Sequence record: OR844650 | Source of the DNA: Escherichia phage ECO103 4-12-1 | Length of the DNA stretch: 64,000 nucleotides | Direction: 5' to 3' (one strand) | Shown here: positions 15,982 to 16,671 of the stretch, piece by piece | Numbering within the stretch: position 1 is the first letter of the stretch | Layout of the letters: each line of letters starts with the position of its first letter | Notes under the pieces: model-generated | What the model was told of the DNA's origin: nothing | Database searches by the model: none | What the model saw: the letters and a program-made list of their open reading frames with translations, nothing else | Translations under genes and position numbers: made by a program

Positions 15982-16183
15982 TCACTTCGTTCTCTCGTAA
16001 CTCAAGAAGTCACTGCGTTTACTTCGTAAACTAGTTCCTTCTGAAAATGATAATGTACTTTAAAAACTTGACGGGATTTGTTGAGGACTATTACATCCCC
16101 CCGCAGGGGAATGAAGGTAATAAAAAAGAGACAATTAAGTCTCTCTTGACGATGATGGCATCGGATATTATCGAATTGCGAAT

Positions 16184-16217
16184 TTCTCAAATTTTGGACG
16201 GATCTTTCTTGTACCAA
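16184..16217. repeat. direct repeat copy 1 (17-nt perfect core TTCTCAAATTTTGGACG)
   Basis: core 16184..16200 identical to 16336..16352; flanks similar (..CTTTCTTGTA..). Confidence 0.6.
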
Positions 16218-16335
16218 AATTTAGAGAGCGAAAGCGGGTTGCTCGGTTTCTCTCTATCGCAGTCATATGCAACGGTCGCTGGTCTTTTCATCAACAGCAC
16301 TCAGTACTAACTCTATTCGATCAAAGTAGTACTTG

Positions 16336-16369
16336 TTCTCAAATTTTGGACGCAACTTTCTTGTAAAAA
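16336..16369. repeat. direct repeat copy 2
   Basis: see copy 1; the cores start 152 bp apart. Confidence 0.6.
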
Positions 16370-16671
16370 TTGCGTCCGCTATCCTTGAACTCCCTTAGCA
16401 AATCTGGTAAGGTGCGAACCTTATACATCTATCTAGGAACTCTCTGTATGCTTATCGGAGTTCTTTATACAGCCGTGTCGCCGTGATTCGTGGTCTTACA
16501 TCGTGTTTGTTTGAATGCCAGTACTCTAACAGGTTTCTTCTGCTGTTCGCTACAACGGTAAAGCTCATCTATCCTTTACATTTTCAAGAGAAGTAGGTTC
16601 TCAGTGTCCATTTTTCAATGTCCGTTGTCATTTTCTATATACATTATATCATTGGAACATATAATGTCCCA

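Follow-up and report, generated by a model that had tools for sequence, protein, structure and literature searches.

RNAs that are large, intricately folded and equipped with conserved unpaired strands are rarely found, and time and again they have proved to be ribozymes, cores of ribonucleoprotein complexes or self-assembling particles. Among the described examples are the 'ornate' bacterial and phage RNAs GOLLD, ROOL and OLE, which PMC12286853 describes as forming RNA-only homo-oligomers. Here, we analyzed a gap between two genes in a stretch of 64,000 nucleotides (nt) from Escherichia phage ECO103 4-12-1 (sequence record OR844650; the whole stretch is called the window below). This gap (15982-16671) is flanked by the minus-strand genes 15553-15981 and 16672-17070. 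It is very likely that 15973-16671 is one copy, designated type A, of an undescribed family of structured RNA genes of ~0.5-0.7 kb, which stand alone and would act via a conserved partner. The family is a new RNA class with a new association between phages and bacterial islands, and no description of the element was found in the literature searched.

GOLLD, ROOL and OLE resemble this family in size (0.5-0.8 kb) and in having many covarying helices split by conserved unpaired strands, and GOLLD and ROOL are also carried by phages and prophage-like elements. On the other hand, the new family matches no Rfam model, has enterobacterial jumbo phages and islands as its hosts, occurs as four to five paralogues per genome, possesses a double-pseudoknot core and is not accompanied by adjacent tRNA genes (none in the window). 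The phi29 pRNA is likewise a phage-encoded and promoter-driven structured RNA whose structure is conserved beyond its sequence. However, it is a single-copy RNA of ~174 nt from phi29-like podoviruses with a terminal-protein genome, whereas the present family shows no match to it and belongs to phages with T4-like terminases.

With regard to the islands, experiments published in 2025 established that jumbo phages have satellites and left open the question of recognition (PMC12595487); the same study reports no RNA element common to phage and island. The I55-type islands analyzed there (Zhao et al. 2025, PMC12595487) have an integrase located by a small-RNA gene (tmRNA there, ffs in our case), variable defence cargo and no recognised transfer genes, all of which also apply to the islands described below. 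The latter differ from I55 in that they are found in Enterobacteriaceae instead of Pseudomonas, measure ~10 kb or more as opposed to 20-70 kb, involve other helper lineages and are known from sequence alone.

Covariation, promoter and strand

An earlier inspection of the bare letters by a model (hereafter the sequence-only reading) had described the gap as a GC-richer and ORF-poor island. Both properties were confirmed: the guanine-cytosine (GC) fraction is 0.375-0.425 across 16000-16599 compared with 0.25-0.33 in the flanks, and the longest internal open reading frame (ORF) has 87 amino acids (aa). The same reading had suggested that conservation acts on nucleotides rather than on a protein, and had left the decision to a comparison of covariation with conserved ORFs in relatives. 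This comparison clearly favours structure, since covariation is present and no ORF is conserved, so that conservation lies at the levels of nucleotides and structure. The homologues keep no ORF open, the longest initiated ORFs (23-105 aa in 28 homologues) differing in frame and strand. This ORF-length survey replaced a clustering of stop-to-stop ORFs, which was dropped as uninformative because nucleotide conservation makes all frames look similar.

For the analysis of covariation, 17 helices (90 pairs) were mapped to a minus-sense MAFFT alignment of 39 diverse homologues (alignment A3). The core of ~510 nt contains at least 17 helices, two pseudoknots among them. Canonical pairs occupied 91.9% of the pair cells compared with 77.6% after shuffling, a value that none of 500 shuffles reached, and compensatory double changes were observed in 60 of the 90 pairs. 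The covariation score was 0.368, versus 0.136 for shuffled alignments and at most 0.089 when partners were slid by 1-3 columns. Six helices (P3, SL2, SL7, Pe, Pb and Pd) were 100% paired, and in 34 further non-redundant metagenomic and island sequences P3, P3a, Pe, Pd and SL2 contained zero non-canonical cells. The pseudoknot Pa is formed by AUCGAAU in the loop of stem-loop (SL) 6 and AUUCGAU ~140 nt downstream. The pseudoknot Pe joins GUUGC upstream of Pb to GCAAC in the loop of Pd, and covaries as GUCAU/AUGAC, GUUGU/ACAAC, GUUGG/CCAAC and GUUAC/GUAAC. The helices are joined by the near-invariant strands AUAAAG, CU(A/C)GAUAGAnAUAUAAGG, GCUAAGGGAG, CGACCGU and ACCCGC.

Four hairpins had been listed by the sequence-only reading, and all of them exist in the sequence. 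The CCCC/GGGG and GGACGCAA/TTGCGTCC pairings are real, whereas the pairing AGAGAGC..CTCTCT lacks covariation support; the pairs backed by covariation at that site are, on the minus strand, GAGAG (16254-16250) with CUUUC (16234-16230) and UCUC (16227-16224) with GAGA (16188-16185). The remaining one, an AT palindrome at 16641-16667, is lineage-specific and overlaps the promoter.

A scan of Rfam, which had been proposed with models of group I introns, tRNA-like RNAs and phage sRNAs in mind, gave no match. With Rfam 15, no match reached the gathering threshold in the whole window, and this includes GOLLD, ROOL, OLE, HEARO, RNase P, tmRNA and group II introns; at E<=10, the region 15800-16900 had only chance-level matches to small nucleolar and long non-coding RNAs (E 1-9). 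The island copies of the RNA did not match Rfam either. ARAGORN detected no tRNA or tmRNA, and the non-coding RNAs seen in RNA-seq of PA5oct are not homologous, having no nhmmer match and lacking the core motifs.

The unit is read on the minus strand. This is settled by a promoter, a bias towards G·U wobble pairs and a U-tract after a hairpin. Every copy ends, on the side that is the right side in the window, with the reverse complement of TGnTATAAT, with TG(G/A)(G/A)AC 16-17 nt before it. In the window, these are the extended -10 element TGATATAAT (16643-16651, minus strand) and, 16-17 nt away, the -35-like element TGGGAC (16666-16671, minus strand), which is conserved in all paralogue types; the corresponding match in a promoter scan was GGGACA-16-TATAAT with TG ahead of the -10. 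The family consensus of the -35 element is TG(G/A)(G/A)AC, with TGAAACG in the CBB/GAP32 group, and 59 of the 73 non-redundant members contain TGnTATAAT, contig ends having cut off most of the remainder. Judged by these motifs, the promoter is of the sigma-70-type extended -10 kind and of the phage's own class, the same type as the 'divergent RpoD-like' promoter described for CBB and GAP32 (PMC5259590). The window contains 19 TGnTATAAT sites, 16 of them on the minus (coding) strand, and they therefore appear to represent a general promoter class of the phage. Transcription is predicted to start near 16636. The same promoter type (TGGGACA, spacer, TGATATAAT) recurs on the minus strand at 38508-38479 and 53199-53170, and the nhmmer profile of the RNA family weakly matches five TGnTATAAT sites via its promoter part alone. 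All weak profile matches in the window besides the single RNA copy are of this promoter-only kind.

In well-aligned helices, G·U cells outnumbered A·C cells by 98 to 11 in the minus sense (29:0 in Pd, 5:0 in P3a and 47:7 in the C4/G6 hairpin). Thus, 29 of 39 sequences show a G·U pair in Pd that would read A·C if the plus strand were transcribed, as would the U·G of the P3 domain at 16531, and the C4/G6 hairpin has an interior U·G in 31 of the 39. The hairpin at 16144-16127 is followed by a U6-7 tract in the minus sense alone, and in B-type copies this hairpin contains an interior U·G. The fold z-score was -3.23 for the minus strand and -2.42 for the plus strand. Three other measures were ambiguous and were not used for the strand: RNAalifold on both strands of 13 sequences (-58.2 vs -67.0 kcal/mol, with similar numbers of covarying pairs), single-sequence minimum free energy (minus favoured in just 13 of 27) and a blind G·U versus A·C count on the first MAFFT alignment (44 vs 48, with spurious helices dominating). 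Two plus-strand candidates were rejected: a long-range helix (alignment A1, columns 91-107/474-488) had zero compensatory changes and was broken in four sequences, and a GNRA-like loop, CGAAAG, was merely the complement of the 3' strand of Pd.

The 3' end of the RNA would be at ~16125 with termination at the U-tract and at ~15975 without it. Its position is uncertain because the U-tract hairpin is missing from the C and D types and because pairing of the RNA type extends further downstream. Past the U-tract, all types keep the C4/G6 hairpin with its cUGCGg loop, CCUCAACAAAUC, a second CGUCA(A/G) box, an AT-rich spacer and a 3' domain.

Copies in giant phages and bacterial islands

The promoter that defines the strand, the multi-copy nature of the element and its copies in bacterial islands go beyond what the sequence-only reading had noticed. 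By sequence comparison, the window comes from a jumbo coliphage of the Asteriusvirus type. Across 15900-16750, the identity is 100% in Salmonella phage SD-2_S15 and Escherichia phage JP4, 99.9% in phAPEC6, PBECO4 and G17, and 96.9% in 121Q, and phAPEC6 matches the window without any difference across 16040-16640. Since these include cultivable E. coli phages (phAPEC6, G17, PBECO4 and 121Q), the family is directly testable.

Homology searches place the family in the Rak2-like jumbo phages, i.e., Asteriusvirus, Mimasvirus, Eneladusvirus and their relatives. Using blastn, 16069-16601 was detected at 66-72% nucleotide identity in distant genera, including GAP32, CBB, XbC2, fHe-Yen9-04, Serratia BF, 7t3, Munch, fENko-Kae01 and several Erwinia phages, nearly always in unannotated gaps and next to different genes. 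Exact-motif scans of IMG/VR followed by nhmmer yielded 39 non-redundant members, all of them on contigs of ~350 kb or their fragments, and the family comprises at least 73 non-redundant members.

Phage 121Q has four paralogues with a mutual identity of ~60-65%, and the records of the window's own lineage have four matching places each, in agreement with this count. In 121Q, copy A, the type of the window, lies at 247.5-248.1 kb between genes 515 and 517; copy B at 326.7-327.2 kb between the EndoVII gene and a small gene adjoining the baseplate hub; copy C at 192.8-193.3 kb near the genes for a DNA methyltransferase and NrdB; and copy D at 90.2-90.9 kb, directly behind the gene for the phage sigma factor of the sigma-70 family. 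A fifth type (E) is present in some metagenomic genomes. Whole phage contigs carry 3-5 copies matching the search pattern, and in every complete genome these have a single orientation. Each type is orthologous across genera and the identity within a genome is low; therefore, the duplications must be ancient. At locus B, the RNA converges on genes 595/596, with no co-directional gene behind it. With regard to neighbouring genes in 121Q (genes 513 and 518 at copy A and gene 170 at copy D), HNH endonuclease genes are located two to three genes from copies A and D, and a gene for a Dps-like protein adjoins copy A.

Phage genome records leave these loci blank or annotate small spurious ORFs in them, such as g347 and g348 of fHe-Yen9-04. 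ORFs of 23-51 aa on either strand are annotated inside the RNA loci of fHe-Yen9-04 (2580-2651 and 2661-2732 of locus L003), 121Q (gene 516) and A4 (gene 511). They are unconserved and probably annotation artefacts, and the present finding corrects many genome records with such ORFs.

Among 5,426 complete E. coli genomes, the element was found in two chromosomes (LR-29-1 and EEC_W5) at 75.8% identity. In LR-29-1, it is part of an island of ~10 kb between ffs and ybaA, with a tyrosine integrase split by IS3 and candidate defence genes (PDC-M45 DuOB/DUF488 and PDC-S16). Its RNA unit is complete, comprising the promoter, both hairpin modules, the U-tract hairpin, the C4/G6 hairpin and both CGUCA boxes. 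When one genome per species was scanned with a strict pattern, Enterobacteriaceae RIT714 and a 2.8-kb contig binned as Clostridium were added, each with a tyrosine integrase and a 52-aa ORF upstream of the RNA. EEC_W5, RIT714 and enterobacterial contigs from metagenomes also carry the element in complete form, including its promoter. In the latter contig (DPOH01000171.1, from the metagenome-assembled genome 'Clostridium sp. UBA10317'), the integrase C-terminus, the 52-aa ORF and the RNA correspond to those of RIT714 and an enterobacterial metagenome contig, with 85-97% protein identity, which suggests that it is probably a mis-binned fragment of an enterobacterial island. A metagenome scan revealed 71 more loci, and several of the contigs bear enterobacterial small-RNA genes.

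The islands share a layout in which a large serine recombinase or a tyrosine integrase comes ahead of the RNA, separated from it by three predicted membrane proteins in the serine-recombinase islands and by the 52-aa ORF in the tyrosine-integrase islands. After the RNA follow a convergent cI-like repressor (helix-turn-helix and Peptidase_S24 domains), a Ner-like HTH_35 protein, a membrane protein, LprI, a resolvase and variable defence cargo such as KwaB or a Cap4-like nuclease. The island RNAs keep all core helices via compensatory changes; for instance, Pa reads UUCAUAC/GUAUGAA. Two of the proteins flanking the RNA in islands had no jumbo-phage homologue in our phage collection, and therefore the RNA unit alone is common to phage and island. 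No match to the element was found in plasmids. In the 9-15 kb seen of islands with a recombinase, a cI/Ner-like switch and defence cargo, whose ends are partly missing, there were no replication or structural genes.

The RNA copy of LR-29-1 (locus L180) is flanked by two ORF-free stretches of ~430 nt (11216-11646) and ~650 nt (12560-13209). Many GUAC-containing hairpin-like repeats and a higher GC content mark the first and TATCGATCGTT palindromic repeats the second, and neither matches Rfam. These two stretches may be further non-coding elements of the island.

Possible functions

Compensatory pairing, the lack of a conserved frame, a promoter of its own and independence from neighbouring genes (both locus B and the islands have convergent genes behind the RNA) all point to a stand-alone RNA gene. 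Thus, of the identities listed by the sequence-only reading, the novel structured RNA has held up, while an iteron origin and a degenerate mobile element have not; the latter disagrees with the intact promoter, core and 3' domain of every paralogue type. In such an RNA gene, a discrete and abundant transcript would be made, whose double-pseudoknot core would show invariant single strands to a conserved phage or host factor, the RNA serving as a scaffold, decoy or ribozyme-like particle. The islands would presumably keep their own complete copy in order to exploit or interfere with the same partner.

Several points weigh against a stand-alone RNA acting through a partner. We infer the trans-acting mode from the architecture alone, and the promoter, the RNA ends and the abundance are predictions. 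The pairing that continues downstream of the U-tract implies a leaky or internal 'terminator', or else a second transcript spanning the 3' domain. The MAFFT alignment is imperfect in variable hairpins, and SL5, SL6 and SL9 are only 63-77% paired. In addition, the single orientation, the AT-rich tract after a G-run and the capture by islands in which no replication genes were seen would fit a cis-acting replication element equally well or better.

Such an element, in the form of an RNA-primed replication origin, is the strongest competitor, although we regard it as considerably less probable. The folded transcript of ~0.55 kb would hybridise near the G-run and the AT-rich tract, be processed and prime the leading strand; the phages would have four or five such origins, and islands without a replicase would carry one for amplification by the replisome of the helper. 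ColE1 RNA II and T4 oriF/oriG have a comparable layout, with a promoter ~0.55 kb ahead of an AT-rich region and G/C runs near the 3' part. RNA II is also a folded transcript of similar length, and T4-like genomes have several origins, like which the family could work without an element-encoded initiator. In agreement with this, the copies are multiple, dispersed and co-oriented in every complete genome, and the phages possess a T4-like set of replication and recombination genes. The promoter (16671-16643) reads toward the AT-rich spacer (16066-16043) behind the G-run hairpin, an arrangement kept in all types, and the conserved unit past the U-tract includes the C4/G6 runs and the duplicated CGUCA box as well as this spacer. 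The unit has been captured by integrase islands with no replication gene in the stretches seen, although this absence of a replicase rests on partial island sequences. Plasmids with a T4 origin replicate and get packaged after T4 infection (Kreuzer and Alberts). Promoters of the TGAAACG type have been reported upstream of DNA-synthesis genes in CBB (PMC5259590), and in Pseudomonas, islands with an integrase and defence genes but no transfer genes proved to be satellites of jumbo phages (PMC12595487; PMC12772148). However, the transcripts of T4 oriF/oriG are not known to be conserved pseudoknotted RNAs, and two covarying pseudoknots plus invariant strands across paralogues diverged by 35-45% suggest a compact RNA, not a hybrid. 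For these pseudoknots and strands, ColE1 RNA II and the T4 transcripts offer no counterpart. The U-tract hairpin, located just ahead of the presumed priming zone, would release the RNA. Moreover, the locus showed neither an antisense regulator nor an initiator gene nor a change in skew, and, as far as sequence can tell, there is no sign of a hybrid, of RNase H processing or of an antisense RNA I.

Because the family is present both in giant phages and in defence islands, it may link these phages to the islands that exploit or resist them. A related and somewhat more doubtful proposal is that the RNA unit is the handle connecting a new class of enterobacterial integrase/defence islands with Rak2-like jumbo phages, either as a folded RNA-primed origin or as a recognition module. 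The phage would use the module at four to five sites, and satellites would have copied it for replication and/or packaging by the helper, or to jam the helper. If true, this would be the first cis- or trans-acting element that a jumbo phage has in common with its satellites, and would represent a novel type of origin RNA with a folded structure. Its presence in integrase/defence islands of Enterobacteriaceae makes the unit a concrete candidate for the means by which islands lacking transfer genes recognise giant phages, or by which the phages recognise them.

It is rather unlikely that the element is a cis-regulatory leader, i.e., a long 5' leader controlling the U-tract terminator by attenuation or by processive antitermination as in put or EAR elements, with the D2 hairpin of the 3' domain also controlling translation of the next gene in type A. 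Loci A, C and D are co-directional with their downstream genes, the order of promoter, structure and terminator-like hairpin is that of leaders, and the D2 loop in the window holds the start codon at 15981. On the other hand, locus B has no co-directional gene and converges on 595/596, and the island unit converges on the gene of the cI-like repressor; we gave this explanation a low rating because there is nothing downstream to regulate in these cases. Besides, the downstream genes vary by locus and genus, the terminator hairpin is missing in the C and D types, and the known attenuator and antiterminator RNAs are all far smaller than this core, with its 500 nt and two pseudoknots.

A DNA-level element appears very improbable. 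As the sequence-only reading had pointed out, an exact 17-mer, TTCTCAAATTTTGGACG, is repeated at 16184-16200 and 16336-16352 (zero matches in 100 shuffles), and its flanks are similar, so that the repeat grows to 30 nt at 93% and 38 nt at 89% identity. These repeats might be sites of an iteron-type origin or of a protein-binding array, and the CGUCA(A/G) box is also present twice and changes in concert between lineages. However, each repeat has just two copies (the 17-mers being 152 nt apart) without an adjacent Rep gene. The 17-mer is the 3' half, in RNA sense, of a conserved hairpin module of ~35-40 nt, which consists of an A/U stem followed by GUAC..AAnAnAG..CGUCC, caps the helix Pc and recurs between GCUAAGGGAG and SL6. 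The module is conserved across paralogue types, yet either copy is missing in some orthologues. Compensatory changes and strand-specific G·U pairs would not be expected for sites in duplex DNA.

The least probable explanation is a self-splicing intron or a degenerate derivative with paralogues generated by homing: although group I introns are of similar size and contain a pseudoknot, and although the family is multi-copy, extends to islands and has HNH genes near copies A and D of 121Q, there was no covariance-model match to Intron_gpI or group II introns on either strand even at E<=10, the unit lies outside genes and has its own promoter, its topology differs from P3-P9 (SL6 is crossed by Pa, and both Pb and Pd by Pe), the genes on either side vary from locus to locus, the paralogue identity of ~60-65% with orthology across genera implies ancient duplication instead of recent mobility, and the GAGACT and ATAGTCC strings in which a resemblance to the R/S elements had been seen occupy variable, unconserved positions. 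The upstream gene 16672-17070 encodes a complete DUF7325 domain (1-131 of 131) and has its own stop, and hence does not represent an interrupted exon; the downstream ORF likewise possesses a start of its own.

Three further likenesses were rejected on inspection of the alignment. The hammerhead-like CAGAUGAG...GAA lacks U4, and its first P3 pair is U-A in 11 sequences; a CsrA sponge would have only one invariant GGA-type motif; and the strands resembling CR-I/CR-V of RNase P are not complementary.

Order of elements along the RNA

All elements below are on the minus strand and are given from 5' to 3' of the RNA. The 5' leader (16597-16636; A3 columns 80-165) contains a lineage-variable hairpin. 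It is followed by SL1 (16569-16596), with the conserved loop GAAAAYGUA and eight pairs, six of them compensatory (92% paired), and by SL2 (16549-16564), a 3-bp stem with a 10-nt loop preceded by a conserved GAUGAG, in which two of three pairs covary. The P3 domain (16469-16546) consists of ACAGC/GCUGU around AGAAGAAACC, P3a (CUGU/ACGG), P3b and a variable hairpin; four of five P3 pairs covary, and P3a/b are 98.6% paired. In the hairpin SL4 (GAACUC/GAGUUC, 16437-16463), all six pairs covary and 98.3% are paired. The segment 16390-16436 comprises the near-invariant strand CU(A/C)GAUAGAnAUAUAAGG, SL5 (UAAGG/CCUUA) and the invariant GCUAAGGGAG, as seen from invariant columns of A3; SL5 is 72.8% paired, in a place where the MAFFT alignment is poor.

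The second copy of the hairpin module (16342-16377) includes the second 17-mer (16336-16352) and the GGACGCAA/UUGCGUCC pairing. Conservation of the module sequence (GUACAAnAnAGnUnCGUCCAAAAUUUGAG) extends over window-type A, B, C and D copies, whereas CBB-type A copies lack it. SL6 (AGUACU/AGUACU, 16303-16333) has six of six stem pairs covarying, is partly misaligned and bears in its loop the 5' strand of Pa (AUCGAAU, 16321-16315); Pa is 99.6% paired, with six of its seven pairs covarying. In the following hairpin, SL7 (GCUG/CAGC, 16278-16298), all four pairs covary.

The double-pseudoknot core spans 16170-16277, with three, four and four covarying pairs in Pe, Pb and Pd, respectively. It begins with CGACC and the 5' strand of Pe (GUUGC, 16273-16269), followed by the 5' strand of Pb (UGCGA, 16261-16257) and by Pd (GAGAG, 16254-16250, with CUUUC, 16234-16230), whose loop holds the 3' strand of Pe (GCAAC, 16242-16238). 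Next comes Pc (UCUC/GAGA, 16227-16185), capped by the first copy of the hairpin module with the first 17-mer, and the core is completed by the 3' strands of Pb (UCGCA, 16181-16177) and Pa (AUUCGAU, 16176-16170).

Downstream of the core, 16145-16163 contains SL9 (CGAUG/CAUCG), which is 76.9% paired with an ambiguous register, and the first invariant CGUCA(A/G) box. The terminator-like hairpin AGAGAC-UUAAUU-GUCUCU, followed by U6AUU, is located at 16119-16144; five of five inner pairs covary and 93.6% are paired. Copies of the A, B and E types possess it, as does the one in the E. coli island, but those of the C and D types do not, and a simple terminator scan did not list it. The segment 16067-16115 carries the 10-bp C4/G6 hairpin UUCAUUCCCC-UGCG-GGGGGAUG(A/U)A, which is 92.5% paired, CCUCAACAAAUC and the second CGUCA(A/G) box. 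At the end (15973-16066; A3 columns 800-930), the AT-rich spacer (16066-16043) precedes the 3' domain, in which a closing stem AGAAG/CUUCU (16042-16038/16009-16005) surrounds the hairpin D1 (16031-16017) and is followed by D2 (16001-15973). D1, D2 and the closing stem change compensatorily between types and are kept in island copies, as read by eye and without a formal count.

The invariant CGUCA box occurs twice (16145-16153 and 16067-16075), with the U-tract hairpin and the C4/G6 hairpin lying between its copies. The base that follows the box shifts in concert at both sites between lineages, so that both read CGUCAAG or both read CGUCAG. No complementary partner of the box was found inside the RNA; its duplication may reflect a protein site present in two copies, a processing site or what is left of an ancient insertion. 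Through a 30-nt inverted repeat (16606-16635/16043-16072; 77% complementary), the 5' end of the predicted RNA could base-pair with the segment behind the second box to give a terminal closing helix, whose conservation in other types could not be shown. A second short direct repeat, ATCGGATATTTTCG at 15955-15968 and ATCGGATATTATCG at 16160-16173, has its copies 205 nt apart, one within the downstream gene and the other in SL9; it is probably due to chance. Finally, the D2 loop (15973-16001) encloses a Shine-Dalgarno-like GAAGUGA and the ATG (15981) of gene 15553-15981, and in Asteriusviruses the element may also gate the translation of this gene.

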